Of a stretch of 64,000 nucleotides of DNA, positions 30,576 through 64,000 are shown in pieces (positions within the stretch are counted from its first letter, which is position 1; each line of letters opens with the position of its first letter). Below the pieces are notes generated by a model. It worked only from the letters and a program-made list of their open reading frames with translations. It was not told the DNA's origin and did no database searches. Location of the stretch: the NCBI RefSeq assembly GCF_964204645.1, contig NC_134028.1:10044001-10108000 (forward strand), read 5' to 3'. Made by a program: the position numbers and the translations under genes. This DNA is from Tubulanus polymorphus. Taxonomy: Eukaryota > Animalia > Nemertea.

Positions 30576-30591
30576 TTATATAATAAAAAAA

Positions 30592-32630: not shown

Positions 32631-32635
32631 ATGAT

Positions 32636-35445: not shown

Positions 35446-35512
35446 TGAAATTGTTAGATTGTTGAGCATTTGAAACCACTTCCCAAGTGAGCATGGTGTC
35501 CCTGGACCCCTA

Positions 35513-37349: not shown

Positions 37350-37429
37350 AGTAATTGGAAAAGTGGGCTTTCATACCAGAGGGCGAGACACCACTCATCA
37401 CCAAGTAATTTGTTTTCCTTATAAATGGG
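37350..37429 (+). repeat. Left TIR of copy C (80 bp)
   Basis: AGTAATTGGAAAAGTGGGCTTTCATACCAGAGGGCGAGACACC...TATAAATGGG. Confidence 0.95.
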
Positions 37430-43799: not shown

Positions 43800-43867
43800 T
43801 TATTAAGGAAAAATTTTATTAAAATTAATTTTTAGTGATGAGCGGTAATTTTTTTATGTTATAAATA

Positions 43868-44620
43868 ATGGTAGAATTAAAAGAATACAGAATATTTGTT
43901 GATTCAAGAAAACTTACAAATTATAAATCTCATAATTTATTAGTACAATTAGATAGAGAATTTAAGAATTGTGTAGATTTAAAATTAGTAAATATAAGTT
44001 TATGTAACTCATTTTATAATATAACGGCTAAAAGTCTTGAACATTAATTTTTTTCAATCAGGAGTAAGAATAAATGGAATTATCTATTTTTAAAACCAGG
44101 ATTATATAATTTAGATACATTAGCGCAGGAAATTAATAAAAAAGCTCGGATCAAATTAGGTAGTGATGCTGAATTTAACATTAGATTTTTGAAAAGTGAT
44201 AATTCTAATAAAATGAAGATAAGGTTAGCTCATAATGAAAAATATCAATTTTCAGTTAAAAAACCTATAGCTAAACTATTAGGAATTACACCAGATAAAT
44301 TTTATTCAAATGTTGATACTACGCCAAATATAATACCTTTTACGCACTTCTATATTTATTGCAATTTAATCGATCCTATAAAAACATTTGAAGCAACTAA
44401 AGATACAACATGTAATTCTAGTATATTAAATATTTTACCAATGAAGAACGTTAAACAATTTGGAACGCAAATAAATTATAATTTAGCTGAATGTGATTTC
44501 AAACCTTGTATTCCTCAATTTAATAATTTTAAATTAGAAATAAGAAATCATAATGGATACTTAATTGATTTGAATAACTTTCCTGTAATTTATGAATTAG
44601 TTATAAGATGTAAAGAGTAA
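43868..44620 (+). pseudogene. Putative minor capsid (penton, single jelly-roll) protein; in-frame TAA at 44045
   Basis: IFVDSR, PGLYN, FYIYCNLI, EIRNHNGYLIDLNN..YEL motifs resemble Polinton/virophage mCP; ~250 aa. Confidence 0.65.
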
Positions 44621-44636
44621 TTTTTCGCCTATATAA

Positions 44637-44990
44637 ATGAATATAACTGTTGGACCGAGTATATGTTTTGGGTTTGATTTTAAACGTGAGAAAGAAATAA
44701 AATTTAACATGAATGATGTAATTACACATATCAAAAATATTGCATTTTCTAATGAAACAACATTTGAGTATGAAACAACAATAGATAAAGAAACTTTTAA
44801 TGCAGAAAAGATTACTAATTTAATTAGAGAATCTTTAAGATTTTATGAATTAGATGAAGATTTTATCATCGATGATATTAAAAAAATAATAATTGAAATA
44901 TACACAAATGAAACTAGTAATAAAATAAATGTTGAATTAATCATCACTAAGATAACAAAATATTTTAAAGATAGTAATTTTTTTGATTAA
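44637..44990 (+). CDS. Conserved 117-aa protein
   Basis: Intact in three copies. Confidence 0.78.
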   Translation: MNITVGPSICFGFDFKREKEIKFNMNDVITHIKNIAFSNETTFEYETTIDKETFNAEKITNLIRESLRFYELDEDFIIDDIKKIIIEIYTNETSNKINVELIITKITKYFKDSNFFD

Positions 44991-44993
44991 TAA

Positions 44994-45215
44994 ATGAGTG
45001 ATAATAAGTGGATAATAACTGGATTATATAATGGCGCATTACTATCAGTTGGAACTGTTGGTTATTCAATGGTATTAAAAAAAGTATTCAAAATGGGAAG
45101 TGTTAATGTTGATAGATTTGATATAAATGATATTTTAAAGTTAACATTAGCAGTTACTTTATCTAATTTAACAATTGATTATTTGGAAAAACAAAAATAT
45201 ATTCCTCCCATATAA
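44994..45215 (+). CDS. 73-aa hydrophobic, probable membrane protein
   Basis: Two hydrophobic segments; conserved in D (62309). Confidence 0.75.
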   Translation: MSDNKWIITGLYNGALLSVGTVGYSMVLKKVFKMGSVNVDRFDINDILKLTLAVTLSNLTIDYLEKQKYIPPI

Positions 45216-45242
45216 GAAGTGTGTAATTTTTTTGCTAAATAA

Positions 45243-45665
45243 ATGGCTTCTGCAATTATAACTATTATAGGATCGGCAATTGTTAACGCTTTAGCATTTA
45301 CTGGTGGTGGTTATTTATTTAAACATATTGATAAAAATAGTTCATTAGGAGAACAAAGAAGACATAACTTAGCGTTAGAGAAATACAATAAAGCTGCAGA
45401 AGAATATAGAGAAAAGAGACAAAACTATATGGATTACATCAATAAAGAATTATATGATCAGAAGATTTCACATAGAGATTTTCAATCAGTTGATGATGCA
45501 ATGAGTTTATATAACGCGGTAACCAATAAAGAAAAATTACATCTATACAAACCTAAATTATCAGATTATTGTACCCCAAGTAAAGAACAACAGAAATATG
45601 AAATAATATGGATTTTAGGTGGAACAGTTATTGTTATATTTGTTGCTTATAAATTTACTAATTAG
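45243..45665 (+). CDS. 140-aa protein with hydrophobic N- and C-terminal helices and an EQRRHNLALE coiled segment
   Basis: Conserved in B, C and D. Confidence 0.8.
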   Translation: MASAIITIIGSAIVNALAFTGGGYLFKHIDKNSSLGEQRRHNLALEKYNKAAEEYREKRQNYMDYINKELYDQKISHRDFQSVDDAMSLYNAVTNKEKLHLYKPKLSDYCTPSKEQQKYEIIWILGGTVIVIFVAYKFTN

Positions 45666-45684
45666 TAATTTTTTTTCTAAATAA

Positions 45685-46119
45685 ATGGAAGATAAAGTTG
45701 ATAGTATTGATATTATTCCTCATGATATAAATAAAACTAAATTAAAAACATATTTAGAAAAACAAATATTAGAATTTGAAAGTGACTTAAAGATAAAAAA
45801 GAAAAAATATTTAAAAAGTAAAATTATATATTATTTGATTATAAGTGGTTCGGTTACAATTAGTTCTGTAATAACATTTTTAGCAATATTCAGCCCATTA
45901 ACACCTTTAGCTATATCAATTGGTGTATTAGGATTAAGTTCAAGTGTTTTAACTGGTATAAGTTCAAAATTAAATATAAAAAGTAATAAAGAAAAAATTA
46001 AAACTTATATAAAAGAAATTAATAAATTAAAGAACACACTAGATTATATAATAAGTTTAAATGGTCATATAACAGTTGAAGAACAAGATAAATTATTAAA
46101 AGAATTAATAAATTATTAA
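45685..46119 (+). CDS. 144-aa two-TM protein
   Basis: IIYYLIISGSVTISSVITFLAIF / LAISIGVLGLSSSVL; conserved in D (62998). Confidence 0.8.
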   Translation: MEDKVDSIDIIPHDINKTKLKTYLEKQILEFESDLKIKKKKYLKSKIIYYLIISGSVTISSVITFLAIFSPLTPLAISIGVLGLSSSVLTGISSKLNIKSNKEKIKTYIKEINKLKNTLDYIISLNGHITVEEQDKLLKELINY

Positions 46120-46135
46120 TTTTTTAGTTATATAA

Positions 46136-47437
46136 ATGGGGTTTCCAAAAGCTTTCCAATATAATAAATCAATTAAATATAATATTCCGGCAATAGATTT
46201 TAAGAAAAATATTACATATAAAAATGTAGTTTTAAATTCATTAACTAATTTAGAAATTTATGTTAATGAATCACAGTTTTTTATTTCTAAAATGGAAAAT
46301 ATATTTAATACATATGAAGTTACTTTTACTCGAGATGAATATCATATATATAAAGTAAAATCTAATATGAAATATTGGCAGAATCAATTAAATTTTGCTG
46401 TTTATTGTGCAACAACAGGATGTGGAATAAGTTGGAATGATAATTTAAATAACTTAGATAAAAATTTGAAGTATTCTGATTTAAAATTAATTCACACAAT
46501 ATTTAGATTTCACACATATTTTCAAATCAGAATAATATTAAATGAATTAGAATGTCCTTTACCCGGGTCTAAATATTTTAAAGAATTGGATAATAATATT
46601 AATATATCCAAGTTTTATAAAATATGTAATGAATTTAATATAAATATTAATTCCGATTTCAGAGCGCATGGTAAATTGCAAGGTGTTGGTGAACAGTATG
46701 AAATAAAAAGAATTGATTATATGCATAGAATTGGAGCTTATCATAATTATAAAATTGATAATAATAATGGTTGGGTTAATTTCATTTTAGAAAATGGTGA
46801 AGGTTTTACAAAATCAGGTATACAAAGAATAAATCAATCTATTAGAATTTATTTGATATGTATTTTAGGCGCTCAAGTTGAAACAAGATCCCCAATAATT
46901 GGAAATGATAACACTTCATTCGATGCGCAGAAACAATTTAAAGTTTTATTTGAAGATTCAATTCATAATGATAAAAATAGATCGATTCCAGAAAACATTG
47001 TAAGATATCAAAATTATTTAGATAAATCTCATGTAAGACTTAATTATTGTATAGGCCCTAATCTATTAATTACTTCTAATGATTTAGTATTAAAGATGGG
47101 AAACATAATTGGTTATAATAATCTAATTAAAACTGCAACAATAAATAATTCATTTGGATTAAATGATATAAATAAAAAGATTATCACTGCTCCAAAATTA
47201 ATGGAAGGTGAAAAAAATAAAAAACATATTCAATCAACAGAAACTAAAACTAATAATATTAAATTAAATAATGATTCCAAAATAAAAGATTACAATACTA
47301 CAGAAAATAATAGAACTGATATTATTCAACATGATATAATTAAACTAAATGATGATAATAAATCCCATGAAAATACTAAATTAGCTATAACTTGTATAGG
47401 AATTGTTATAGGAGGAATATTATATTTTAAATTTTAA
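46136..47437 (+). CDS. 433-aa conserved Polinton protein with C-terminal TM anchor
   Basis: WQNQLNFAVYCATTGCGIS, RFHTYFQIR, GWVNFI; C-terminal LAITCIGIVIGGILYF. Confidence 0.82.
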   Translation: MGFPKAFQYNKSIKYNIPAIDFKKNITYKNVVLNSLTNLEIYVNESQFFISKMENIFNTYEVTFTRDEYHIYKVKSNMKYWQNQLNFAVYCATTGCGISWNDNLNNLDKNLKYSDLKLIHTIFRFHTYFQIRIILNELECPLPGSKYFKELDNNINISKFYKICNEFNININSDFRAHGKLQGVGEQYEIKRIDYMHRIGAYHNYKIDNNNGWVNFILENGEGFTKSGIQRINQSIRIYLICILGAQVETRSPIIGNDNTSFDAQKQFKVLFEDSIHNDKNRSIPENIVRYQNYLDKSHVRLNYCIGPNLLITSNDLVLKMGNIIGYNNLIKTATINNSFGLNDINKKIITAPKLMEGEKNKKHIQSTETKTNNIKLNNDSKIKDYNTTENNRTDIIQHDIIKLNDDNKSHENTKLAITCIGIVIGGILYFKF

Positions 47438-47453
47438 TTTTTTTATTATATAA

Positions 47454-48878
47454 ATGGATGTAGAAGGTGGAGAAGATATTGGAATGGATCCTTTTGATGA
47501 ACCTGGTATAACTGAACAACCACCTGATTTTGATGAAACAAGTTTTAATGATGGTAATGAGCCAGAATATAATAATAATTTGAATACACCTCAATATATT
47601 GATAAAACACGTTCAAAGATAAGTATTGAAAATGAAGTACCAGAAATAACAGAAAAAGAATACAATTATAATGAAATTATTCATGAATTTAAACCAATAT
47701 TAAAAAGATCTGGTTTCAATATAACAAATAAAGGTATGAATTATTTAGTAAAAGATTTAAAATATTTAAATGGTGATTATTATTGGAAATTGAAAGGCGA
47801 CTATTATTTTAAGATTTCAAATCTTAAAAGTAGCGATAAAATAATAACACAATCAACTTTTAATTTATTTAAACCAGATAGAATTAAGAAAATCATTGAT
47901 GATGTTATAACTGATGTTACACAAGAAGAAAGAGATGATAATATAAAAGAATTTAAACAAAGAAATGCTAAATTTTTTAAGATAATTAATGAAAATTTAA
48001 GACAAAAAAAAATTCCTAAAGAAGTTATTAATTCCAAAACTAGTAAACCTAATTCAAGCGAAGTTCAAACTGAAAAACTTTTACCAAATGGATTACTTGA
48101 TGCAACAGATCAACAATTAGAAGATTTAAATATATTTTCTGATGAAGCAATTAGAGAAATTATTAGTATAAGAAATGAAGCTGATAAAATTGCACATAAT
48201 AAAAGTATAAGAGATCAAAAAATTAGAACTTTAGAAAAAGAATTAACTGATAAAAATAAAGAAATAGAACAATTAAAGTCTGATTTAGATCATCAAGTAA
48301 TTGATGAAATAGAATATAAACAAAAAGAATTACGTTTAGAAAAAGAAATAGATGATTTGAAATATAACAAAGAATTACAAAAAGAAGAAAGAGATACATT
48401 ATTAAAATCATATGATTATAATATTAATAGATTAAAAGTTATTTTTAAAGATTTGTTGATTAAACCAAATTCTGAAATATCATTAAAAGACAGAATAAGA
48501 TTATTATTTAAATTAGAAGGAATAACAATTCTTTCAATTCTAACAGCTGTAACTATGTTATTTACAACAATTGGTTTAGCAATATCAAATGCTTTGAAAT
48601 CTACTCCTACTCCCAATAAACCGGATAAACCCCCGAATGATAATAATTCTATAAAAGATAAAGTTAAAGATGGTTTAAAGAAATTAGCAAAATATTTATG
48701 GGAACTATCTAAAAAATCTGCTGCAGCATTGCCAGGAGTTATTGCATCAATTGTTGGTTTTATATTGAAATCTGCTGGGAATATTCTTAACTTTGCTGCT
48801 GAACATATTATTTTATTTTTAATTACAGTTGTAAGTGCTATTATTTTTGGTTTAGTAAACATAATCAAAAATAAATAA
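47454..48878 (+). CDS. 474-aa protein: acidic N-terminus, coiled coil, hydrophobic C-terminal helices
   Basis: Heptad-rich middle; GITILSILTAVTMLFTTIGLAI and LPGVIASIVGFIL...IILFLITVVSAIIFGLV. Confidence 0.82.
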   Translation: MDVEGGEDIGMDPFDEPGITEQPPDFDETSFNDGNEPEYNNNLNTPQYIDKTRSKISIENEVPEITEKEYNYNEIIHEFKPILKRSGFNITNKGMNYLVKDLKYLNGDYYWKLKGDYYFKISNLKSSDKIITQSTFNLFKPDRIKKIIDDVITDVTQEERDDNIKEFKQRNAKFFKIINENLRQKKIPKEVINSKTSKPNSSEVQTEKLLPNGLLDATDQQLEDLNIFSDEAIREIISIRNEADKIAHNKSIRDQKIRTLEKELTDKNKEIEQLKSDLDHQVIDEIEYKQKELRLEKEIDDLKYNKELQKEERDTLLKSYDYNINRLKVIFKDLLIKPNSEISLKDRIRLLFKLEGITILSILTAVTMLFTTIGLAISNALKSTPTPNKPDKPPNDNNSIKDKVKDGLKKLAKYLWELSKKSAAALPGVIASIVGFILKSAGNILNFAAEHIILFLITVVSAIIFGLVNIIKNK

Positions 48879-48897
48879 TTAATTTTTTGTTAAATAA

Positions 48898-50148
48898 ATG
48901 AGTGGGAGTTATATAAGTCCTTCTAAGATTTCTAGAATATCTAATGCTATTAAAGCAGAAAGATCACATCATATAATTACTCATAACCCTTCAAATATTA
49001 ATCCCAATGAAACTTTATACGTTAGAATCCCTCGATTAACACAAAATACTTTTTATGTTCCAAATAGTATTTATTTATCAGCCGATATAAAAGTAACTGG
49101 CCATGATAACAATTATGTTGTTGATAATGTTGGGAGATATTTGATTAAAAAATTAATTATAAAGATTGGTCCAGAAACAGTTTTCTCATTAGATGATTAT
49201 AATTTATTTATGCATTATAAAGATTTATGGTTAACTAAAGAAAATAGAAATAATATGATATTCCAAGGCATTCAATCGGTAAACCAAAATAAATTAAGCC
49301 AATAATAATGAAGCCAATAATGCAGTAGTAGCTAATGACGTAGATAATTTGATTAAAAAGATTTATGGAAGCAAATATAAAATTCCGTTAGATTTTGAAT
49401 TGATAAATAATAATGCACCTTTATATAAATACGCAATTCAAGAAGATATTATATTTGAGATAACATTTGCTCCTGTAAATGAAATTGTATTATCTAGCGT
49501 TGTTAAAGATATGGGTTATAAATTATCGAATATATGTTTAGAATATAATACAGTAACTAATGAAATTATTGCTAATACAATTCAAACTCAATACAATCAA
49601 GGATTTTCATTATTATATGATTATATTGATAAATTTAAAACTGTAACTATTAATGCAAATGATGAAATAATTAATGAGAATATTAACTTCCCAAGAAGAT
49701 CTATTAAAGGTATATATTTTTTACCATTGCAACATATTCTAATGGCGCAATAAATGTTGACAATTATTATAATCCTGAAATATCAAAAGTAGAAATAACT
49801 ATTGAAGGTATAGCAAATAAAATATTTTGCCAAGGAATGAGAATGATTGATCAATGGCCAGAAATTAGAAAACATTTTATGAATGAAAAAGTAAAATCAT
49901 TTGAAAATTGTAATATTAATCAAATTGATTATTATACCGGCAATAAATATGCATTATGGTTAGATTTTAGAACAACAGAGGATAATTCATTACATGGTTC
50001 TGGGAAAAAACTACAGAACACTAAAGATGGAATACAATTATTCATGAAAAAGAAAAAAGGAAGCTTAAATTTCAAAATGCACATTTATATTATATCTGAC
50101 GCGCAATTAAATATTGTAAATTCACAATTAGATAGTATTCAATATTAG
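48898..50148 (+). pseudogene. Putative major capsid protein (double jelly-roll), two frameshifts
   Basis: ~415 aa, beta-rich; ITHNPSNI, NVGRYLIKKL, NICLEY, PRRSIKGI, YALWLDFRT..DNSLHGSG; adjacent to integrase and ATPase. Confidence 0.7.
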
Positions 50149-50178
50149 AAATATAAAGTTAAAATTAAGGATATATAA

Positions 50179-51306
50179 ATGGGTGGTAAAAAAACTCATA
50201 ATACTAAAGAACAATATTTAAGAAATTTATATTACAACCCTGAGAGTTCGGTTGCTTATTCTTCTACTAAAAATATATGGCGTAAAGTAAAACAAGATAA
50301 ATTAGATAAGATAATCCCACAAAATTTAGTTAAATATAAAGATATAAATGAATTTATGTTAGAACAACCAACGTATACAACACATAAAAAAATTGTTAGA
50401 AAATATAAAACTCGTAAAACTATGGTAAGTTATGTAGATCAACAGTGGCAAGGAGATTTAATTGATATGAAAAATCTTAAAAAAGATAATAATGATTATT
50501 GGTGGATATTGAATATAATTGATATTTTTAGTCGTTATGTATGGAGCTTCCCACTTTATAGAAAAGATGCTGCACAAACATCACATGTTTTAAGAAAATT
50601 TCTTTCAGGTGGTAAACTAAAACCAGAAAAAATTCAATTTGATGATGGAAAAGAATTTGATAATTCATCTATTCATGGTCTCTTAGATTTTCATAATATT
50701 AAATATTTTTTGACAAAATCGGATAAAAAAGCAGCAGTTGTTGAACGATTTAATAGAACATTAAGAACAAGAATGTGGAAATATTTTACAGCAAATAATA
50801 CTTTTAAATGGATTGATGTTTTACCAAAATTTATAGAAGGATATAATAATTCTTATCATTCTTCTATTGGAATGAAACCTATTGATGCTAGAAAACCTGA
50901 AAATGCTGAAATTGTTTGGAATAATTTATATGGAGCATTTCTTGTAGATGATTTTGGTGAACCTAAATTTAAAGTTGGTCAAAATGTTAGAATTTCTAAG
51001 TATAAAAAGATATTTGATAAAGGATGCGATCGAAATTTTACTAGAGAAATATATAAAATAATAAAGGTAATAACAACTAAACCATATGTCTATAAATTAG
51101 AAGATTTAGATGGTGAAGAAGTTGATGGATATTTTTATGAAGAAGAATTAAGTTTAACTACTGAAAATCTAGAACAAGAATATAAAATTGAAAAAGTATT
51201 AAAAACAAAAACTGTTAAAAGAAAAAAATATTCTTTAGTAAAATGGGTTGGATGGCCAGATAAATTTAATGAATGGATATTATCAAGTAAAATTAAAAAT
51301 ATATAA
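50179..51306 (+). CDS. RVE integrase with C-terminal chromodomain (intact)
   Basis: WQGDLIDM (D), IQFDDGKEF (D), VVERFNRTL (E); YKIEKVL...LVKWVGWPDKFNEWI. Confidence 0.94.
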   Translation: MGGKKTHNTKEQYLRNLYYNPESSVAYSSTKNIWRKVKQDKLDKIIPQNLVKYKDINEFMLEQPTYTTHKKIVRKYKTRKTMVSYVDQQWQGDLIDMKNLKKDNNDYWWILNIIDIFSRYVWSFPLYRKDAAQTSHVLRKFLSGGKLKPEKIQFDDGKEFDNSSIHGLLDFHNIKYFLTKSDKKAAVVERFNRTLRTRMWKYFTANNTFKWIDVLPKFIEGYNNSYHSSIGMKPIDARKPENAEIVWNNLYGAFLVDDFGEPKFKVGQNVRISKYKKIFDKGCDRNFTREIYKIIKVITTKPYVYKLEDLDGEEVDGYFYEEELSLTTENLEQEYKIEKVLKTKTVKRKKYSLVKWVGWPDKFNEWILSSKIKNI

Positions 51307-51915
51307 ATGAATAAGGAATTATTTATATTTGAGCCTCATAATATGTTAATTTCTGGTGTAACAAATTGTGGAAAAACTTATTTTATATTAAATTTATTAG
51401 AAACTGTTTATGAAAACTATTTTGATAATATAGTATTATTTTGTCCAACATATGAATTTAATCAAACTTATAATAGAAATATTACTAGAAATAATAAATT
51501 TATTATATTAGATCCTAAAACAGTAAAAGAAAATTTAGATAATTGTATAAAAATAGCAATTGATATTTATAAAGGATCAAATACATTATTCATTATAGAT
51601 GATTGTGCTAATCTACATGATTCAAAAGTTAGAGAAAGTGAGTTATGTTATTTAGCTTTTTCTGGCAGACATTTTGGGATAACAACTTGGGTTTTAAATC
51701 AAAAATATAATTCAATTGTTAAAGACTTTAGAGAAAACATTAGATTTCTAGTTTTATTCTACAATAAAGATAGAAAATCGATGAAAAATGCACTTGAGGA
51801 AAATGATATTATTCCACATGATTTACATAATGAATATATGGATAAGTTGAAAAATATTAAAAGATCAAAATTACTATTTAGATTACAACACCCATTTAAA
51901 TATGAATTTATTTAA
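51307..51915 (+). CDS. A32/FtsK-HerA-type DNA packaging ATPase (intact)
   Basis: GVTNCGKT, FIIDDC, GRHFGITTWVLNQ, FREN. Confidence 0.92.
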   Translation: MNKELFIFEPHNMLISGVTNCGKTYFILNLLETVYENYFDNIVLFCPTYEFNQTYNRNITRNNKFIILDPKTVKENLDNCIKIAIDIYKGSNTLFIIDDCANLHDSKVRESELCYLAFSGRHFGITTWVLNQKYNSIVKDFRENIRFLVLFYNKDRKSMKNALEENDIIPHDLHNEYMDKLKNIKRSKLLFRLQHPFKYEFI

Positions 51916-51924
51916 ATTCAATTA

Positions 51925-52265
51925 GTTTGTTAATCTAGTTGAATTCTAGTTATTGGTAGTTGTAACAAAAATCAAATAGATTTAACAATATTTTAACTAG
52001 CTTGTTAATCTAGTTTAATTCTAGTTACATTCTAGTTGAATTCTAGTTGTTAGTAGTTGTAACAAAAATCAAATAGATTTAACAATATTTTAACTAGCTT
52101 GTTAATCTAGTTTAATTCTAGTTATATTCTAGTTGAATTCTAGTTGTTAGTAGTTGAAACAAAAATCAACTAGATTTAACAAGAAATAAACAAACACAAC
52201 AATATTTCAACTAGCTTGTTAATCTAGTTGAATTCTAGTTACATTCTAGTTAAATTCTAGTTGCA
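51925..52265. repeat. 97-bp tandem repeat (~3.5 units) built of CTAG-rich subunits
   Basis: AACAAAAATCAA at 51964, 52061, 52158; recurring TTCTAGTT. Confidence 0.85.
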
Positions 52266-52294
52266 ACATCACAACTAATTTTTTTGTTATATAA

Positions 52295-52900
52295 ATGGTA
52301 GGTGAAAAGAAAATAAAATCTAAAAATGGTGATGTTCCAATTGAAAAAACTTTAGATGATTTAGGAATAACAGAAAACAAATTAATTCCAGATGATGGTG
52401 CTTTAAGTAATGTTACAACAAATAATAATTATGAATATTATCTTTATTGTAAACATCAATTAGAAATATTAATAGCATCTGGAAAATGTAAAAATTTTGT
52501 CGGTAAAAATTTAACTTATAATGAATTAGATACAATGAAATCAGATGAAATTATTAGATTATTTAAGATTTATGAAGCCGCGAGAACAGCTAGAATTAAT
52601 GACGCGATATCAGAAAATGTAGTAAAAGGTTATAGTAAATTATGTAATTATATACTACCAATTGAAAATGAAAATAGATTATATTCCGATTTAAAAAATG
52701 ATTATTTAGTTATGACTGAATTAAATAAATGGATTGGATATTTATCATTTCAATTAGGTGGATTTATGACATTATTATCAACGGGGGTTATAACATTTTC
52801 AAATATTGAAAGTAAAAATATTTCTATAATAAATGAGCGAGGTGAAAGAAGTGAAGGAATTAACTGTGAAGAAAAAACCGAGAACTCAGAAACAAATTGA
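52295..52900 (+). CDS. Conserved 201-aa Polinton protein
   Basis: Homologue at 7604-8206. Confidence 0.8.
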   Translation: MVGEKKIKSKNGDVPIEKTLDDLGITENKLIPDDGALSNVTTNNNYEYYLYCKHQLEILIASGKCKNFVGKNLTYNELDTMKSDEIIRLFKIYEAARTARINDAISENVVKGYSKLCNYILPIENENRLYSDLKNDYLVMTELNKWIGYLSFQLGGFMTLLSTGVITFSNIESKNISIINERGERSEGINCEEKTENSETN

Positions 52901-53201
52901 ATGGTCTCGACAATTAGGAATTAAATCACAAGAATATAAAAAAGCTGTAAAAGAAAAAATAAGTAATAAAAATGTTAATAAAAATGGTGAAAATATTGTT
53001 ATTTCTACTCCTTCTGATAGTAGAATATTTGATAAATATTTATATTTTACAGTTGGATTTGTAATTGTATTCATTTTGATTGGGTGTAATTGGTATAAGA
53101 AATCAAATAAAATTCATGATATTAGTAATTCTGAACCAACTGCTATCAAAAATGAAAGTACTTCTGAAATTCCAAAATTGATAATAAAAAAAATGGATTA
53201 A
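52833..53201 (+). CDS. 122-aa basic protein with a single TM
   Basis: YLYFTVGFVIVFILIGC; homologue at 8199. Confidence 0.75.
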   Translation: MSEVKEVKELTVKKKPRTQKQIEWSRQLGIKSQEYKKAVKEKISNKNVNKNGENIVISTPSDSRIFDKYLYFTVGFVIVFILIGCNWYKKSNKIHDISNSEPTAIKNESTSEIPKLIIKKMD

Positions 53202-54207
53202 TATTTTAGAAAAAAAGCAAAAAAAATAATTGAATATCTCACTACTTTTGTCTATCTATGCGGAGCAATTAAATTGTCCAGATAAGTCATTTCGGATTCT
53301 AGATATTCATTATTTTTATCAATTTATTTTGTTTTTATTTGAATATTTGAATTTGAATTTGTTAATCAATTAACATAGTAATTGATTACTAATTTGATTA
53401 AAAATTATATCATAATGAAGTTAAAAATACATAATTCATTTATCAGTTTTCATTCTTACATTCTTTTCATTCGGAATAATTTATAATTTCAAATTTCACA
53501 TATTTTTTTAAGCACCAACAACATTTACTTAAGTGTTTTAGCTAAGTATATAAGGCAATTCATTCAACCACTGGAGTGCCGCCGGGCTTGGCTTGCAGGG
53601 GCATTTCGAAAATGCGCCTTTGTCCACCTTCCGTGGTTCTCCTTCAGTTTCGACTTTCGATCCTCCTTTCGGGGGTAAGGGGTTGATAGGAAATGCATTA
53701 GGCGCCTTTAATATAATGTGTTTCCTGTCAACCATTGAAGGAGAATTGGTGAGGTGTGGGTCACAGGGGTGTAATTAGAAATGCTTGGGGAAAGGTATCT
53801 CGTGGCGCCTCTCAATAACGGGATGCTTATCCCCTAAAAACTCTGTGAGTCAAGTCGGGTGGTTTTGCTAAAACTTACCGTAAAAACATTGAAATATTCC
53901 TTTTAATCACGAGAGAATGATGACTATCCTCCTGTCGTCACGGCTGAGCTAATTTAAATAAACCTCGCTTTCAGCAACTAATGAAAACGCAGTAATTCAA
54001 TACCAGCTAACTGGCTTGTGTGGTGTTGTATGTACTGCGTGCTAATTATATAACAACAACGTTGTGCAACACCTGTTTGATTGATCAATATTCAAATGAA
54101 GCACTCTCTTATAATAACATGTAACAGATGTACTGTATGATTGTAGTTGTTTATAAAACGACTAAGGTCATTTTGGATTCTAGATATTCATTATTTTTAT
54201 TTTTTAT

Positions 54208-54534
54208 TCAATCAACAATTTCTAAATCATGATGACCGTCTTCATTTTTCCCATGATATATTATTTTAAATCCTACTAAATCTTTCAATTCCTCCGTACT
54301 CAATGAAACCCATTTATCGGGTAAAAACACTTTAAATTCTCGCGATGTACTAACATTACAGTAGCTTAAATTAGCTGATACTTTCTCTCCATATTTAGTT
54401 TTTATCTTTTCTAATTTCAATATTTTATGTTCAATTTCTTTTGTAACATCAACTAACTTTTTTATTTCAAATTGTTTTTTTGCTGGTTTTATTCTGTTAT
54501 TTATTGTTGCTAAGAATGCTTTTCTATCTCCCAT
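54208..54534 (-). CDS. 108-aa protein starting inside the right TIR; possible OB-fold ssDNA-binding protein
   Basis: TKYG..FKVFLPDKW..IIYHGKN; degenerate homologue at 60781-61130; fold is a guess. Confidence 0.65.
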   Translation of the reverse strand: MGDRKAFLATINNRIKPAKKQFEIKKLVDVTKEIEHKILKLEKIKTKYGEKVSANLSYCNVSTSREFKVFLPDKWVSLSTEELKDLVGFKIIYHGKNEDGHHDLEIVD

Positions 54535-54617
54535 TTATAAGGAAAACAAATTACTTGGTGATGAGTGGTGTCTCGCCCTCTCGCCCTCTGGTATGAAAGC
54601 CCACTTTTCCAATTACT
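54530..54617 (-). repeat. Right TIR of copy C (88 bp)
   Basis: Reverse complement of the left TIR with one extra 8-bp AGGGCGAG unit. Confidence 0.95.
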
Positions 54618-54959
54618 TGTTGCATTTATTAACGGACTCATTGGATTGAACTTCAAAACAAAATTTACGATATTTAGGTGGGTTGTTATTCAATAGGCCT
54701 ACGACCAATCTGTCCGGATGTAAGGCCTACGCATATACATAGGCCTACATAGGCTAGTAGCCTCTACTAGGTTAAGCGTTCGCTGTGGGGGAAAGGAGAT
54801 CGTTCGCTGTGTCGCTTGAAGTGTTTATCGAGTTTTACGCGACCTTAAGGCTTTATAGTATGGTGGCTGATAAGGGCCATGCGTAAAAAAACACGTATAT
54901 GCAAATGAGGGCGACATTATGACAAAACGACAAAACTAAAATAACGCGACAAAACAATA

Positions 54960-55670
54960 ATTTTAGTTTTGTCGCCCGCGACAATTCATTATTTTGGTTT
55001 TATCGCCCGCGACAATTCATTATTTTGGTTTTATCGCCCGCGACAATTCATTATTTTGGTGTTGTCGCACGCGACAATTCATTATTTTGGTTTTATCGCC
55101 CGCGACAATTTTTTTTTTTTGTCGCGGTTTTATCGCCTGTGACAATTCAATATTTTGGTTTTATCGCCAGCGACAATTCATTATTTTGGTTTTATCGCCC
55201 GCAACAATTCATTAGTTTGGTTTTGTCGCCCGCGACAATTCAATATTTTGGTTTTGTCGCCCGCGACAATTCATTATTTTGGTTTTATCGCCCGCGACAA
55301 TTCATTATTTTGGTTTTATCGCCCGCGACAGTTCATTATTTTGGTTTTGTCGCACGCGACAATTCATTATTTTGGTTTTATCACCCGCGACAATTTTTTT
55401 TTTGCCGCGGTTTTATCGCCTGCGACACTTCAATATTTTGGTTTTATCGCCTGCGACAATTCAATATTTTGGTTTTATCACCAGCGACAATTCATTATTT
55501 TGGTTTTATTGCCCGCGACAATTCATTTTTTTGGTTTTGTCGCCCGCGACAATTCAATATTTTGGTTTTATCGCCAGCGACAATTGATTATTTTGGTTTT
55601 ATCGCCCGCGACAAATGATTATTTTGGTTTTATCGCCCGCGACAATTAATTTTTTTGGTTTTGTCGCCCA
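54960..55670. repeat. 31-bp minisatellite array (~23 units)
   Basis: Same unit and same upstream flank as the 32636 array. Confidence 0.93.
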
Positions 55671-55759: not shown

Positions 55760-56175
55760 TACGGGAGCGATAAAGGGCCTCGAGTTGTCGCATTCAAACT
55801 CGACAAGTCGCCATATTTATGTCGATATATCGCGATATATCGCGTCAAGTCCACATGAATATGTCTACATATCGTGACGTTTTCACAACAAATTTCGCTT
55901 TTTTGCTCATTTTCCACGGGACAAGCCGTCATTTGAAGACATGTCTGAATGTAAGATGAAGACGCTAGTAATATGACGACTGAGTTTCAAGTCGTCATGA
56001 ATATGTCGATTTGTCACGAGGAAAATGGTCGAGAAAACGAAATATGTCGTCAAAACGTCACGATATATCGACATATTCACGTCGACTTGACGCGATATAT
56101 CGCGGTATGTCGACAAAAATATGGCGACTTGTCGAGTTGGAACGCGACATCTCGAGGCCCCTTATCGCTTCCGTA
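55760..56175. mobile_element. Fold-back MITE (416 bp) with 7-bp TSD
   Basis: TACGG...CCGTA termini, ~155-bp imperfect inverted arms, GATATAG at 55753-55759 and 56176-56182. Confidence 0.88.
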
Positions 56176-56278
56176 GATATAGTGTCGAATAATAAGGTCA
56201 TTTTGGCAGATTCTTTTTTTTTTAAAGTGATATTAAAGCGATCATTCAAGTGATCCTACTTAATGAAAAATCGACGGA

Positions 56279-56465
56279 AGTAATAGGGGTAATAGGCTTT
56301 CAGGCCAAAGGTCGAAGGGTCGAGCTCGCAAAAAATGAAAATAACAATAATTTCCAGTTCAATTAGTCGCGCACACTCCTAATTCAACTGGAAATTATTG
56401 TTATTTTCATTTTTACTCACTCGCTCCTTCAACCTTTAGCCTGAAAGCCTATTACTCCTATTACT
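56279..56465. repeat. 187-bp terminal palindrome of copy D
   Basis: AGTAATAGGGGTAATAGGCTTTCAGGC...TTTCCAGTT / AACTGGAAA...GCCTGAAAGCCTATTACTCCTATTACT. Confidence 0.9.
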
Positions 56466-56712: not shown

Positions 56713-59700
56713 ATGGAAGCAAATAAGTACTACTGTCCAACATGTAATATCAATATAGATAAATCCCAAAAAGCAAGACACAATAAAACTAAAACACATT
56801 TAGAGAATAAATTGAAACTAGAATATAAAGATGATATATTAGAAACTAAATTAGATGAATTAAAGAATGAAAAAGAAACATACAAATGTGATACATGTAA
56901 TCAATCAATCAGTGTTAAAAGATATTATAAAGAACATTTAAAATCAAAAAGTCATATTAGAAATATGAATAATGTTATTTTAGGTGAAGATTATTTTGAT
57001 AAAGATAATGATAAGAAACAGAAGACAATTAAAAGCATAACAAATAAATTAAACAATAAAAGACCATACATGGAAGATGTAAGAAATTATATTAATTCAT
57101 TAGATAATAAAAAAGATATAGAGATAACCGAAGCATTTAAAAGTGATATTGGTCCAGCAGCTATCGAGTTTAAATTTCATAAAGGAAAAACATTAGAAGA
57201 AAATAAAAAACATTTAGAAAATTTGAAAGAAATAATAAAAATAATTACAGATGTTGAATATCCTAAAATAAGTATATCTTCTAAAGTAAAGTTTATAAAA
57301 TCTAAAGATAAACCAATATATAATATAAATTCTCATTCACAACATATTATATATAAACAACATATAGATGATAAATTAGATAAATGTTATAATGAAGTAA
57401 AAACTAAAATAGAAGAGAAATATTTTGAAGGATCTGGTTTAATATTTGATGAAATAATATTTATGACTTTACATGTCTAAAACACAAAATATAATAAGTT
57501 AACTAAATCAAAACCAATTGATGAAAATAATGTATCATATTATAAAGAACCAGATATTGAAGCATCGAGTTATATTAAACTACCATTTAAAACTAATGCT
57601 GTTATAAATGTACAAAATGAAGATGATAAATATTTTCTATGGGCTATAATAAGTTGCTTACACCCAGTTGAAGATTATAATAAACATACTTAAGGATTAA
57701 CAAATTATTGACAATTTGAAAATAATTATAAGATAGATAAGTATCCTGTTATAATTAAAAACATCCCAAAAATAGAAAGAGATAATAATATAAAGATAAA
57801 TGTATTTGATTGAATCAAATTACCAAATACAAAAGGTAACAATATAAAACATAATACATTAGAACCTTTATATCTATCAAAAGAATATGATTTAAACGAT
57901 GTTATAGATATACTATATTATGAGAATCATTATATGTGGATTAAACATATCGATTTATTTTTTAAATCAGAAAATGATCACCATAATAAAATATATATAT
58001 GTAGAAAATGTTTACATGAATTCAGTAATGAAAGTACATTATTAAATCATAAACAATTATGTGAAAATCATGATTATTGTAAATTAGTTTTACCAAATGA
58101 AATGGATAAAATATTAGAATTCAAAAAATATGATTACAAAAATAAAGTACCATTTGTAATATATGGAGATTTTGAATCATTAAATAAAGAACTAACTGAT
58201 CAAGATAGAAAAGAAATATATTATAAGAGAAAGAAATTAAATTCTAATGAAAATGATTATTCTGAAGAACCACCAAAAACAAATACTATTAAAAAGATTC
58301 ATCAATCAGCTGCTGCTTTCGGGTTATATATAAAATCTGATTATCCAGAACTAATCGAAAGTGAATATTATGATTATAGAAATGAAAATGTTATCAATCA
58401 TTTTTGTGACTTATTAATTGAATATGAAATAAGATTTAGTAAATTATTGAATACAAATATAGAAATTATAATGACAGAAGAAGATAAAAAAGAATTTGCG
58501 TTTGCAGATAAATGTTATTATTATGAAAAGATATTTAATTATAAAGATAAAAAAGTAAGAGACCATGATCATTTGAATGGAAAGTTTAGAGGCGCTGCAC
58601 ATGAGAATTGTAACTTACAAGCTAAGAAAATTAACTTTGTACCAGTTATATTTCATAATCTATCAGGATATGATGCACATTTATTTATCAATCAGTTATG
58701 CCAAAAAATAGAAGAAATTAATAATGAAATAGAAAGATTAAATTCAAATAGATCAAAAGATAACATACCAACTTATAAATTTAGAATGTTAGCTAAAACA
58801 TCTGAGAAGTATATATCATTCCAATTTGGGTGTTTAAGATTTATAGATTCATATAGATTTTTAAATAGTTCATTAGATAACTTATCAAAATCATTAGTTG
58901 ATGATGAATTAAAAAATATTAAAGCAACACTACCCAAATAATGATGATTTTCAATTAATGAGATATAAAGGAGCAATTCCATATTCATTTTATAAATCAC
59001 ATAATGATTTCAATATAACTGAATTATTGAAAGAACAATTCGATGATGAATTAAAAAATGAATATGTTAAAGATGAAGTATATAATAGAACATTGAATAT
59101 TTGGAATCATTTTAGAATGAAAAATCATGGACAATTAGTAGATTTATATTTAAAATCAGATGTATTATTGTTAACTGATATATTCGAAAGGTTTAGAGAT
59201 GTAAACCTAAAATATTTTAACATTGATCCTTGTCATTGTTATTCAAGTCCAGGTTTAACATGGGATTGTGTATTAAAATTTACAGATATAAAAATGGATT
59301 TGTTAACAAATACAGATCAATTACTATTATTTGAAAAATCTATAAGAGGAGGAGTTTCAGGTGTATTAGGTGATAGATATTTCAATGTAAATGATAACCC
59401 TGGCTATAAGTTATTATATATAGATGCAAATAATTTGTATGGTTGGGCAATGATGGAACCACAACCTTATGGAGTATTTGAAATAAGTGAAGTTTTACAA
59501 CGTGAAAATAATGATAAATTTGATTGGAAGAAAAGAATTCTAGATATTGCAGATGATTCAGATACTGGTTACTTCTTTGTTGTAGATTTAGAATATCCTG
59601 AACATATTAAATTTAAATCTAGAAATCTAGCTTACTGTCCCGAACATAAAACTGTAACTCATGAAGAATTATCAAATTACCAAAAAAGAATTAAACCCGA

Positions 59701-60751
59701 AAATCATATTCATACAGAAAAGTTAATGGTAACTCAAGAAGATAAATATAATTATGTCGTACATTATAGAATGTTAAAGTTTTATCTAAAACAAGGAATG
59801 ATCCTAAAAAAAGTACATAGATATATTTCATTTAGTCAATCTAAGTGGTTAGAAAAATATATAGATTTTAACACCAAACAGAGAACTGAAGCTAAAAACT
59901 GATTTCGAGAAAGATTTCTTCCAGTTAATGAATAATGCATTCTATGGTAAGACTTGTGAAAATATTAGAAATAGAAATGATATTGAGTTAGTTAGTAATG
60001 GTAAAAGAATTAGACATTTACAAACATATCCTAAGTTCATTGGTAACAGAATATTTGATGAGAATTTAGCTGCAGTTAAAATGAGAAGAACATCAATGAA
60101 ATTTAATAAACCAATCTATGTTGGCGCTTCAGTTTTAGAATTATCAAAATTACTAATGTATGAATTCTATTATAATGTATTACAACCACTTTTTGGAGAA
60201 AAACATATAGAAATATTATATTTTGATACTGAAAGTTACATATTAAACATAAAAACTGATAACATAAAGATGATTTAAAAACATTAAAACATCATTTTGA
60301 TTTTAGTAACTATCCTAAAGATCATGAATTGTTTAGCAATGATAATAAAAAAGTTCCAGGGAAGTTTAAGGATGAATTAGGTGGTGAAGAAATGATAGAG
60401 TTCATAGGTATTAGATCTAAAATGTATTCAAATAAAACTAAAGAACATGAAGCTAAAAAGTTAAAAAGAATAACGAAAAGTGAAGTAGAAAAGAATATTC
60501 ATTTCAAAGATTACATCAATTGTATATTCAATGAAGAAGTTAGAAAACATAAGATGAGATCTGAAGATCATGAAATGTTTATTGAAGAAATTGAAAAGAT
60601 TAGTCTAAACCCATTTGATGATGAAAGATATATTTTAGATGATGGAATTCATACAGTTGCTTATGGTTGCAATTTAGATGAATACTTAAAATTTAAAAGA
60701 GAAGAAACAAAAGAGAAGGAAATAATAAAAAAAAGAATTCTAACGTGTTAA
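56713..60751 (+). pseudogene. polB: pPolB without intein; multiple stops and frameshifts
   Basis: YGDFES, VRDHDH, FHNLSGYD, YIDANNLYG, MNNAFYGK, uninterrupted YFDTES at ~60219-60236. Confidence 0.92.
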
Positions 60752-60780
60752 TCAAATTTTAATAAAAATATGTTATTAAA

Positions 60781-61130
60781 ATGGAGAGTAAACAAACACA
60801 CAGTGAGAACAACAAATTATTTCTAGATAGAATAAAAGATACTTCAAATGTCAAATCAGTAGATTATAAATTTAAGAAGTTAAAAGAATTAATAATCCAT
60901 AAGAAATATCTTATTACAGATATTGTTACAGTTACTAACAAATATGGATTTTAGTTATACACTTAGAATATGAAGGATTAAAAGGAAATACATATAAATT
61001 CAGAACATATTTACCGGATAGATTTCATAGATTATCAAGTGAAGACTTAGCAGAATTATGTTCTGGAGATTTTTATTTCGTATACAAAGGTAAGAATGAA
61101 AAAGGGCACCATGAAATAGATTTCGAATAA
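60781..61130 (+). pseudogene. Homologue of the 108-aa protein at 54208-54534, frameshifted
   Basis: FKKLKEL..TNKYG..FRTYLPDRF..FVYKGKNEKGHHEIDF. Confidence 0.7.
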
Positions 61131-61147
61131 GAAAATATGTAAAATAA

Positions 61148-61935
61148 ATGGTAGAATTAAAAGAATACAGAATATTTGTTGATTCTAGAAGGCTTACAAA
61201 TTATAAATCTCATAATTTACTAGTACTATTAGATAGAGAATTTAAGAATTGTGTAGATTTAAAATTAGTTAATATAAGTTTATGTAATTCTTTTTATAAT
61301 ATATCGGATAAAACTATTGAAGATAATACTGTTTTAATTCATATTAGAAATGTAGATAAATGGTTTCATCTAATTTTAAAACCAGGATTATATAATTTAG
61401 ATACATTAGCTCAAGAAATTAATCGAAGAGCACGGTTGAAAATTAGAAGAGCTGATAAATTTTTAATTAGATTTATAAAAAGTGATAGCACAAATAAAAT
61501 TAAAATAAAGGTATATGATGAAAGTCAACATGCATTTATGGTAAAAAAAACCTATAGCTAAACTGTTAGGAATTGTACCAGATACTGTTACAGGAAACGT
61601 AGATGTTAATTCAAATATAATACCTTTTACAAACTTTTATATTTATTGCAATTTAATCGATCCTACAAAAACTTTCGAAGCAACTAAAGAAACAATTTGT
61701 AGTTCTAGTATACTAAATATTTTACCGTTAAAAAATGTCGGAAACTCAAATAACTCAAAATGTCGGAAACTCATTTGGAGCTCAAATAAATTATAATTTA
61801 ACAGAATGTGATTTTAAACCTTGCATTCCTCAATTTAATAATTTTAAATTAGAAATTAGAAATCATAATGGATACTTAATTGATTTGAATAACTTTCCTG
61901 TAATTTATGAATTAGTTATAAGATGTAGAGAGTAA
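61148..61935 (+). pseudogene. Putative minor capsid protein, frameshifted
   Basis: Homologous to 43868-44620. Confidence 0.65.
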
Positions 61936-61951
61936 TTTTTTCATTATATAA

Positions 61952-62308
61952 ATGAATATAACTGTTGGACCGAGTATATGTTTTGGATTTGATTTTAAAC
62001 GTGAGAAAGAAATGATATTTAACATTAATGATGTAATTACACAAATCAAAAATATTGCATTTTCTAATGAAACAACATTTAAGTATGAAAAAACAATAGA
62101 TAAAGAAACTTTAAATGTAGAAAAGATTACTAATTTAATTAGAGAATCTTTAAGATTTTATGAATTAGATGAAGATTTTATCATCGATGATATTAAAAAA
62201 ATAATAATTGAAATATATACAAATGAAACTAGTAATGAAATAAATGTTGAATTAATCATCACTAAGATAACTAAATATTTTGAAGATAGTAATTTTTTCG
62301 ATAAATAA
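61952..62308 (+). CDS. Conserved 118-aa protein
   Basis: Near-identical to 44637-44990. Confidence 0.78.
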   Translation: MNITVGPSICFGFDFKREKEMIFNINDVITQIKNIAFSNETTFKYEKTIDKETLNVEKITNLIRESLRFYELDEDFIIDDIKKIIIEIYTNETSNEINVELIITKITKYFEDSNFFDK

Positions 62309-62530
62309 ATGAGTGATAATAAGTGGATAATAACCGGATTATACAATGGAGCATTACTATCAGTTGGAACTGTTGGTTCTTCAATGGTATTAAAAAAAGT
62401 ATTTAAAATGGGAAGTGTTAATGTTGATAGATTTGATATAAATGATATTTTAAAATTAACATTAGCAGTTACTTTATCTTATTTAACTATTGATTATTTG
62501 GAAAAACAAAAATATATTCCTCCCATATAA
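62309..62530 (+). CDS. 73-aa hydrophobic protein
   Basis: Near-identical to 44994-45215. Confidence 0.75.
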   Translation: MSDNKWIITGLYNGALLSVGTVGSSMVLKKVFKMGSVNVDRFDINDILKLTLAVTLSYLTIDYLEKQKYIPPI

Positions 62531-62554
62531 ATGCATAATTTTTTTGCTAAATAA

Positions 62555-62977
62555 ATGGCTTCTGCAATTATAACTATTATAGGATCGGCAATTGTTTACG
62601 CTTTAGCATTTACTGGTGGCGGTTATTTATTTAGGCATATTGATAAAAATAGTTCATTAGGAGAACAAAGAAGACATAACTTAGCATTAGAGAAATACAA
62701 TAAAGCAGCAGAAGAATACAGAGAAAAACGACAAAACTATATGGATTATATTAACAAGGAATTATATGATCAGAAGATTTCACATAGAGATTTTCAATCA
62801 GTTGATGATGCAATGAGTTTATATAACGCGGTAACAAATAAAGAAAAATTACATCTATACAAACCTAAATTATCAGATTATTATACCCCAAGTAAAGAAC
62901 AACAGAAATATGAAATAATTTGGATTTTAGGGGGAACAGTTATTGTTATATTTGTTGCTTATAAGTTTACTAATTAG
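62555..62977 (+). CDS. 140-aa protein
   Basis: Near-identical to 45243-45665. Confidence 0.8.
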   Translation: MASAIITIIGSAIVYALAFTGGGYLFRHIDKNSSLGEQRRHNLALEKYNKAAEEYREKRQNYMDYINKELYDQKISHRDFQSVDDAMSLYNAVTNKEKLHLYKPKLSDYYTPSKEQQKYEIIWILGGTVIVIFVAYKFTN

Positions 62978-62997
62978 TAATTTTTTTTGCTAAATAA

Positions 62998-63432
62998 ATG
63001 GATGATAATATTGATAATATTGATATATTTCCTCATGATATAAATAAAACTAAATTAAAAATATATTTAGAAAAACAAATATTAGAATTTGAAAGTGATT
63101 TAAAAGTTAAAAAGAAAAAATATTTTAAAAGTAAAATTATATATTATTTGATTATAAGTGGTTCGGTTACAAGTAGTTCTGTAATAATATTTCTAGCAAT
63201 ATTCAGCCCATTTACACCTTTAGCTATATCAATTGGTGTATTAGGATTAAGTTCAAGTGTTTTAACTGGTATAAGTTCAAAATTAAATATAAAAAGTAAT
63301 AAAGAAAAAATTAAAACTAATATAAAAGAAATTAATAAATTAAAAAATACACTAGATTATATAATAAGTTTAAATGGCCATATAACAGTTGAAGAACAAG
63401 ATAAATTATTAAAAGAATTAATACATTATTAA
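62998..63432 (+). CDS. 144-aa two-TM protein
   Basis: Near-identical to 45685-46119. Confidence 0.8.
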   Translation: MDDNIDNIDIFPHDINKTKLKIYLEKQILEFESDLKVKKKKYFKSKIIYYLIISGSVTSSSVIIFLAIFSPFTPLAISIGVLGLSSSVLTGISSKLNIKSNKEKIKTNIKEINKLKNTLDYIISLNGHITVEEQDKLLKELIHY

Positions 63433-63448
63433 TTTTTTAATTATATAA

Positions 63449-64000
63449 ATGGCAGATAGTTTTCCAAAATCTTTCCAATATAATAAACCAATTAAATATA
63501 ATATTCCTGCAATAGATTTTAATAAAGATATTACATATAGAAATGAAGTTTTAGATTCATTAACTAATTTAGAAATTTATGTTACTGAAACTAATAATTT
63601 TAATGCAAAGATGGAAAATATATTTCATGTATATTTAATTAATTTTAAAAAATTGAAAGATGAAAAACAATGGTTATTAAAATCTAATATGAAGTATTGG
63701 CAGAACCAATTAAATTTTGCAGTTTATTGTGCAACAACAGGATGTGTAATTAGTTGGAATGATCATTTGAATAATTCTAAATATAAATTAATTCAAAGTT
63801 TATTTAGATTTCATACATACTTTCAAATAAGAATAATATTAAATGAATTAGAGTGTGCTTTACCAGGATCTAGATATTTTAAAGAATTAGATAATAATAT
63901 TAATTTATCAAAGTTTTATAAAATTTGCAATGAATTTAATATAGATATAAATAATTCTGATTTTAGAACAAAAATTGGAACAATAAGATCACTTCCTTGC
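63449..64000 (+). CDS. 433-aa-family protein, 5' part (partial at window edge)
   Basis: MADSFPKSFQYNK...WQNQLNFAVYCATTGC. Confidence 0.75.
   Translation, partial: MADSFPKSFQYNKPIKYNIPAIDFNKDITYRNEVLDSLTNLEIYVTETNNFNAKMENIFHVYLINFKKLKDEKQWLLKSNMKYWQNQLNFAVYCATTGCVISWNDHLNNSKYKLIQSLFRFHTYFQIRIILNELECALPGSRYFKELDNNINLSKFYKICNEFNIDINNSDFRTKIGTIRSLPC

Follow-up and report, generated by a model that had tools for sequence, protein, structure and literature searches.

The window, by which we mean the whole stretch of 64,000 nucleotides (nt) analysed here, is AT-rich eukaryotic DNA with several decayed copies of Polintons. Polintons, also called Mavericks, are virus-like transposons of 15-20 kb with terminal inverted repeats (TIRs) and a 6-bp target duplication. 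Our subject is the protein-primed DNA polymerase gene (polB) of three copies, here named B, C and D: motif C of the gene is split by an intein in B and C, and the corresponding site is empty in D. An original prediction had seen in the three a single homing cycle caught side by side at its stages, degenerate in B, intact in C and empty in D. Our analysis makes it probable instead that D is a dead Polinton which carries the polymerase of an intein-free lineage on a C-like structural backbone, that the Glu in its motif C is a rare and private change, and that the intein of B and C is a likely old resident of a Polinton clade, where homing maintains it, chiefly among near relatives and not from C-type to D-type copies or back.

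The intein of copy C and its relatives

The insert of copy C is 1065 nt long and stands in frame between YFD and TDS, with 355 codons free of stops. Its splicing motifs comprise the start SVTADT, the sequence VTEDH (the TxxH of block B), the end QKN and a +1 Thr; the penultimate residue is Lys and not His, as it is in several relatives. TIGR01445 matched with 33.1 bits (cut-off 24.5) and PF14528 was over its cut-off as well. An alignment-based fold model, used in place of a discarded single-sequence fold whose value in the predicted local distance difference test (pLDDT) was 38, reached a pLDDT of 84.6 and a predicted template modelling score of 0.87, and its best Foldseek matches are endonuclease-bearing inteins (E 5e-17). 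The model has the same two-part fold as the archaeal inteins PI-PkoII, TliVMA, PhoVMA and PI-PfuI and as PI-SceI, at 9-17% identity and with a weak sequence match to PI-PkoII (E 8.5e-6); activity is known for some of these, whereas for copy C it is predicted. By every feature that sequence and fold model allow to be tested, the insert reads as a genuine class 1 PolB motif C intein. Its endonuclease, described before as intact, does keep both LAGLIDADG motifs, but the polB gene that holds it is itself broken near 39853, upstream of the intein.

The surrounding element C is complete. Its terminal repeats are 90% identical over 91 nt and flanked on both sides by TGTTGC, and it encodes an rve integrase (PF00665) and a packaging ATPase (PF04665), both over cut-off. 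The profile of protein-primed PolB (PF03175) is over cut-off in a piece of the D polB that is 71% identical to C. As to the capsid, the broken gene at 48898-50148 matches Capsid_N weakly, below the cut-off (E 0.003). Among the open reading frames (ORFs) scanned no maturation protease was matched, and an atlas search with the ORF at 46136-47434 gave no usable match.

The closest relatives of the intein occupy the same site in other Polinton-type polymerases, with identities of 39-48% (63% for P0190 and 73% for a fragment), and the next ones lie in family-B polymerases with PF00136, many of them on giant-virus contigs (30-42%). Fourteen Polinton inteins formed one clade among 38 chosen others with support of 100/100. 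Of 117 intein loci found, 30 were used, as alignment rows only. This clade adjoins the giant-virus PolB inteins; since the tree is midpoint-rooted, the direction of transfer is one that we infer. A search of 50% representatives added 141 proteins, namely a fragment of one Polinton intein (P0486, 73%, with TDA after it), 127 with giant-virus or other family-B exteins and 13 that could not be typed. Family-B polymerases P0482-P0490, 1400-2400 aa long, have two or three intein matches each and are multiply invaded relatives. Many full-length relatives of the polymerases studied here (P0171-P0173, P0238, P0261, P0006, P0007) are found on contigs of just 4.5-8 kb, which are either collapsed repeats or small stand-alone polymerase elements.

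On an extein tree of 45 rows, which excludes 16 of the 58 classified proteins as near-copies or fragments, the intein state changes seven times, and at least six of these changes are forced by supported branches. Across the eight intein-plus lineages, intein and extein trees have all five of five splits in common (one of them weak in each tree), with a patristic r of 0.92. The original prediction had named fully congruent trees, together with an endonuclease that cuts no empty allele, as evidence against itself; the first half of this pair, the congruence, was found at this deep level. Horizontal shuffling of the intein between distant Polinton lineages is not supported, given this agreement. 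One old gain with repeated loss and short-range re-invasion fits these findings best. The cycle of gain, loss and re-invasion is summarised in PMC2814812 (here and below, papers are cited for the parts of their text available to us).

Copy D and its empty insertion site

In the polB of copy D, TATTTTGAT ends at 60227 and the TES codons come immediately after it, motif C reading YFD/TES with an empty insertion point, exactly as had been claimed. Reads from raw-read run X5, which bears the same species label, span this site without an intein in 319 cases. The reads are linked to the window by shared words and species label; they make up 12% of one run, possibly from another individual, and four runs hold 37-44% of the sampled C-region words. 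Besides D, an empty counterpart of the insertion site was found in 42 of the 58 classified homologues. The upstream extein had been called identical in C and D, and the last 20 residues before the insertion point do agree (55 of 60 nt, the final 18 nt being identical). However, this match is ordinary conservation, because identical runs of 17, 18, 19 and 25 residues recur elsewhere in the same pair of genes. Taken alone, the 46 bases flagged originally amount to an unremarkable vacant insertion site, located in a pseudogene and bearing a private mutation.

This mutation concerns the second Asp of YxDTDS, which we take to be the counterpart of Asp458 of phi29 polymerase. At 60233, 314 of 319 X5 reads (215 + 99) differ from D and encode the residue conserved in the family, which leaves at most five with the D base in the Glu codon. 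A further D substitution near the site is also near-private (321 of 323 reads differ), as is a one-base gap about 40 nt downstream, where 263 reads have the extra base at a depth of 313-330. In the 40 rows listed, copy C shows near-private places at least 23 times in 3.2 kb, a density of the same order as in D. The idea that the lesions of D are scars of nuclease cuts was ruled out, as substitutions and gap lie 6-40 nt away and are about as dense as the private changes of C. TDS occurs in 108 of 120 homologues and TES in one, a fragment of 314 aa; among 71 further cluster members the site is covered in 49, of which 48 have TDS and one TDA. Since so few reads share the D base, TES is decay, a rare change private to D, and not a homing-resistant allele. 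The change had been proposed to be either of the two. A resistant allele would be common among empty copies and compatible with function, and TES is frequent neither in the reads nor among the homologues. In phi29 polymerase Asp458 is a catalytic carboxylate (PMC4974454).

Element D begins at about 56278, 1.66 kb past the right end of C, and one of the frame breaks in its polB falls about 40 nt after the empty site. In windows of 200 nt the polB genes of D and C are 70-82% identical, and the polymerases 73-77%, whereas identity at 61739-63535 is 93-98%. Synonymous divergence (dS) between D and C is 0.63-1.58 in four pieces of polB versus 0.06-0.31 in four downstream genes, and for two downstream genes C is nearer to D than to B. 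In the extein tree D groups with the intein-free P0171-P0173 and C with the intein-free P0174, each with support of 99. No relatives of the D type were found in the viral-contig search, and the genome-contig search for them returned six loci at 32-42% identity. Because its polB is far from C while its structural genes are near, and because it groups with intein-free proteins, D is on these sequence comparisons best read as a recombinant carrying a swapped-in, intein-free polymerase module. Exchange of polB on a shared structural backbone has been described for Polintons (10.64898/2026.10.13.758929; PMC8502044; 10.1101/2023.08.22.554363). Copy D resembles the replication-module swapping of the first two of these reports in having polB exchanged on a common backbone, and its swap joins polymerases as similar as those of C and D and alters the intein state. 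D had been presented as an intein-free allele of the same locus. It is a separate insertion in a separate supported clade, and at the dS given its empty site does not belong to one gene pool with the invaded one.

In C and in A/B an ORF for a zinc-finger protein follows polB on the opposite strand (42498-43799, minus, and 15668-16669); D has about 390 nt of unrelated sequence in this position (60752-61141), the right edge of the swapped module. A 78% copy of the hairpin-like D end (56278-56465) lies at 5084-5485, ahead of ORFs like the right-arm genes of C and of an integrase fragment (7604-9186), and both hairpin-like sequences are possibly ends of a second Polinton family.

A reading of copies A and B as two elements was rejected, since they are a single polB gene with a tandem duplication. 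This gene has stops and frame breaks in addition to the 1143-bp duplication, and its motif C deviates as well, with a TDA after the intein that the original prediction had not mentioned. The endonuclease of B had been called degenerate, and its first LAGLIDADG motif is indeed lost. This is part of general gene decay, however, and B does not have a spliceable intein with a dead nuclease in a working gene, since the intein lies out of frame and the gene is a pseudogene. All three genes, B, C and D, are thus broken, and none can make a polymerase protein as it stands. Between B and C (14362-14964 versus 41447-42054) dS is 0.37 in the 3′ half of the intein, 0.25 just upstream of it and 0.07 in the 5′ part of the intein and the far extein. 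This uneven divergence reads as mosaic exchange among intein-plus copies, as far as sequence can suggest it. Contigs show further variants directly after the second LAGLIDADG motif.

Features of the Polinton copies in the window, with the evidence for each.
Feature	Position	Strand	Evidence
A/B element: its left end with a polB pseudogene of the C lineage (92-95% identity with C)	9205-15411	+	alignment
1143-bp tandem duplication, 99.9% identical, which makes "copies A and B" of one polB gene	12508-14791	+	sequence identity
Copy B intein, 998 nt, with a 67-nt loss including the first LAGLIDADG motif, out of frame, then TDA	13958-14955	+	comparison with C
Element C, complete 17.3-kb Polinton	37350-54617	+	TIRs 37350-37432 and 54527-54617; 6-bp target duplication TGTTGC; PF00665, PF04665
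Copy C polB, at least two frames, break near 39853	37679-42501	+	reading frames
Copy C intein, 355 aa, in frame, Ser1 to Asn355, +1 Thr, two LAGLIDADG motifs	40981-42045	+	motifs, profiles, fold
Likely left end of element D, imperfect hairpin, unlike the C terminal repeat past the first bases	56278-56465	.	alignment
Protein-primed polB of copy D, a pseudogene in five frame pieces, from the intein-free D lineage	56713-60751	+	PF03175, frames, tree
Vacant intein site of copy D, polB motif C, insertion point 60227/60228 (YFD/TES)	60219-60245	+	sequence; X5 reads
Copy D downstream genes, near C (93-98% in 61739-63535); the element runs beyond the window	61142-64000	+	alignment

Intein-plus and intein-free copies and what explains them

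Both types of copy are abundant in the reads, the intein-plus type at a depth of about 240 and the empty type at about 320, counted at different thresholds. The coexistence of intein-plus and intein-minus Polintons that was predicted therefore holds, genome-wide too, and the census of intein states proposed at the time, which was run on reads, found two polymerase lineages rather than alleles of one cycle. C-type reads cover the 5′ half of the intein to a depth of 219-255, compared with 233-298 in four upstream bins, but are 99-119 deep in its 3′ third, the part with the greatest difference between B and C; this drop may be divergence or loss. A precise empty-site joint was absent from the C-type raw reads among the 15 joints listed (of 21). 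At the D site 76 reads run off into the start of the intein, and 86-121 reads have C-type bases at four flank positions; the intein-plus reads, which are unphased, are consistent with being C-type. A synonymous two-base switch of a Ser codon at +7/+8 is present in about 31% of the empty-site reads (96-99 of 317-319). All four runs also contain a joint at 41688-42039, where 350 nt of the 3′ part of the intein are gone, with 8 letters in between. It marks another decayed copy and not a mini-intein, because the C-terminal splicing block is missing.

Exchange between C and D left no trace at synonymous sites, where, in stretches of 20 codons to the left and right of the insertion point, differences amount to 5 of 20 and 6 of 14 versus 220 of 691 elsewhere (p 0.63 and 1.0); judged by these sites co-conversion is not supported, as the rate near the insertion point matches that of the rest of the gene. 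In relatives the pattern is a different one, with plus and minus forms compared as proteins and not assigned to one genome. One 90% cluster (15 of 136 members seen) contains seven full-length proteins with the intein, six without and two that do not cover the site. Between its full-length members P0122 (plus) and P0133 (minus) there are eight differences among the 20 residues that surround the site and eight among the other 1171, and none of the six intein-free members seen has TDS (four TDA, two CDS). The first ten downstream residues of the plus form agree with other intein-plus lineages at 9-10 positions and with its own sister alleles at six, a sequence pattern that co-conversion or, alternatively, target escape would produce. 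The flanks of P0141/P0005 (plus) and P0144 (minus) are identical in a second cluster, of which 15 of 121 members were seen, and in both clusters plus and minus alleles are 99% identical. Two intein-free proteins of the D lineage are distinguished by 7 of their 1241 residues, five of them at -13 to +3. Judged by these proteins, altered and possibly resistant target sites exist in relatives, at residues other than the catalytic Asp. The proposed homing between copies thus finds no synonymous signal for C-type and D-type, whereas homing as a general idea is favoured by the site-centred differences of the relatives.

In the scheme that we consider probable, one early capture from a giant-virus PolB would have brought the intein to the same motif C site. 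Self-splicing would restore YxD-TDS, the LAGLIDADG domain would cut empty motif C sites, and repair from an intein-plus copy could follow when two related elements occupy one cell. Loss would occur by recombination with intein-free polymerase genes, and the whole-module swap of D may be one route. Several observations weigh against this scheme. Every intein-plus polB copy seen in this host is broken, and both splicing and cleavage are predicted from sequence and model. The retention of both DG motifs by all 23 of the full-length Polinton inteins listed speaks for the scheme, but these were chosen by full-length match and are thereby biased to intact ones. A contig of run X1 has 40984 next to 42055, a joint that would represent an empty C-like site with TDA but one side of which is 25 letters long. 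Since the reads are unphased, a few D-type copies with an intein may remain. Finally, of the seven residues that set C and D together apart from all four relatives, two are found at -12 and -3 (p 0.025, post hoc), which with the identical last 18 nt gives a faint hint of an old exchange between C and D; the check for co-conversion tracts suggested originally thus came out null at synonymous sites, with this hint beside it.

The same hint speaks for the original view, in which homing takes place between the three copies, B, C and D show the degenerate, the intact and the empty stage of a single cycle, and TES is a resistant allele; so do the presence of all three states within 50 kb and the D-type flanks, which over about 33 nt are near-identical to C and look like a usable target. 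We nevertheless consider this view very unlikely, and the read counts at the D site already largely refute it. Tree and dS assign D to another lineage, the residue changed is presumably a catalytic one, B is a wrecked gene and no spliceable mini-intein, synonymous sites carry no conversion signal, and all three genes are broken. Unlikely to a lesser degree is a history in which the intein was gained once and then inherited or lost without ongoing homing, intein-free alleles arising from ordinary recombination with intein-free polymerases. Intein and extein trees that agree at every split and show similar distances accord with such a history, and in the host reads the intein state tracks polymerase lineage. 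It sits poorly with endonuclease motifs kept over more than one change per site of divergence, with a ratio of nonsynonymous to synonymous divergence of 0.25 for the B/C endonuclease, with the nearly identical plus and minus alleles of the two protein clusters and with differences that concentrate around the site.

The endonuclease might also act mainly as an interference weapon, which would cut co-replicating intein-free Polintons too diverged for homing and would select altered targets. Empty sites that persist in the reads at the depth given alongside intein copies with a nearly identical core target would suit this role, and so would the Ser codon switch, the clustered differences of the two D-lineage proteins and the absence of TDS from the intein-free members of one cluster. 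Since the nuclease activity is a prediction from sequence and the variants may be subfamily markers or residual conversion tracts, we think it quite improbable. More tentatively than the scheme we prefer, we consider it possible that an intein of giant-virus origin actively homes from one Polinton copy to another in animal germ lines, and that intein-free Polintons respond by target change (TDA or CDS for TDS, altered flanks, the Ser codon switch) or by a swap of the whole polymerase module, which would amount to a natural gene drive, and resistance to it, between the multicopy elements of a single animal genome.

Comparison with known systems and other features of the window

Intein-bearing DNA polymerases are known from Mimivirus (R322) and other Nucleocytoviricota, and these inteins resemble that of copy C in having about 350 aa, a Ser start, an Asn end, a Thr at +1 and a LAGLIDADG domain (PMC549080). 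Family-B polymerases with PF00136 carry the related intein at YGD/TDS, at the 30-42% identity given above, whereas the host here is the protein-primed polB (PF03175) of an integrating Polinton with many chromosomal copies, and the Polinton inteins are a clade of their own. Within Polintons, HNH and VSR domains are inserted in the pPolB2 of nematodes, oomycetes and molluscs (10.1101/2023.08.22.554363), and one sentence in PMC11071308 suggests intein invasions as a source of nuclease insertions in pPolB. A nuclease domain within a Polinton polymerase is thus common to both cases, but no splicing domain or LAGLIDADG is described in the available text on pPolB2, whereas the intein here splits motif C and has full splicing motifs. 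C and D have in addition a weak endonuclease VII-like match upstream (E 0.007 for a D piece).

Eukaryotic inteins are described as scarce, and surveys, in the parts available, list fungi, algae, protists and giant viruses and not animals (PMC5784728, PMC10710043). Fungal Prp8 and VMA1, the Anaeramoeba paralogues and the endogenous giant-virus polymerases of algae are likewise nuclear and virus-linked or occur as plus and minus paralogues (PMC10710043, PMC5784728), but no animal host is described in those texts, and here a Polinton with many copies carries the intein, in a genome that is likely an animal's. In the literature searched, exclusive of supplements, subscription papers and Repbase, we found no Polinton polymerase described as carrying a LAGLIDADG intein, and an earlier mention is possible. 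The nematode pPolB2 paper (10.1101/2023.08.22.554363), apparently the basis of the sentence in PMC11071308, mentions neither LAGLIDADG nor homing in its available text, the term intein is absent from a coral Polinton survey by term count, and PMC12220804, in the part available, deals with GIY-YIG and HNH genes. What is new is the carrier, a Polinton polymerase, and the likely animal host, and the type of intein itself is known. The system consists of a clade of inteins carried by Polinton polymerases, whose plus and minus lineages are both abundant in one likely animal genome and whose relatives vary around the insertion site. It places a complete intein at high copy number in a likely animal nucleus, implies a meeting of Polintons with giant viruses, and yields a new small intein and a new predicted LAGLIDADG enzyme. 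With many invaded and empty copies per genome, the length of conversion tracts, the flank divergence that blocks homing and target escape become countable in a single assembly.

Some further features of the window concern its repeats. A Penelope-like retroelement lies inside the A/B Polinton at 18582-21795, with a reverse transcriptase, a GIY-YIG domain and 363-bp direct repeats that are 98% identical. The reverse transcriptase matches a Tubulanus polymorphus gene model at 231 of 253 residues, the differences lying almost entirely where the match begins, and the remaining named matches of the element are from crustaceans. Judged by this one mobile element, the host is likely an animal, namely a ribbon worm (nemertean) or kin. 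At 22833-31531 a block of capsid, integrase and ATPase genes forms a large inverted duplication (22833-26387 versus 27312-30868, 93%), with a further copy of 676 bp. Between C and D an imperfect palindrome of 416 bp (55760-56175, 79%) resembles a non-autonomous DNA element. Arrays of 31-bp units are found on both sides of element C, at 32634-34359, 35511-35959 and 54945-55669 (55, 15 and 23 copies), and they are accompanied by 155-bp repeats at 34685-35439; together these arrays are likely another repeat family.
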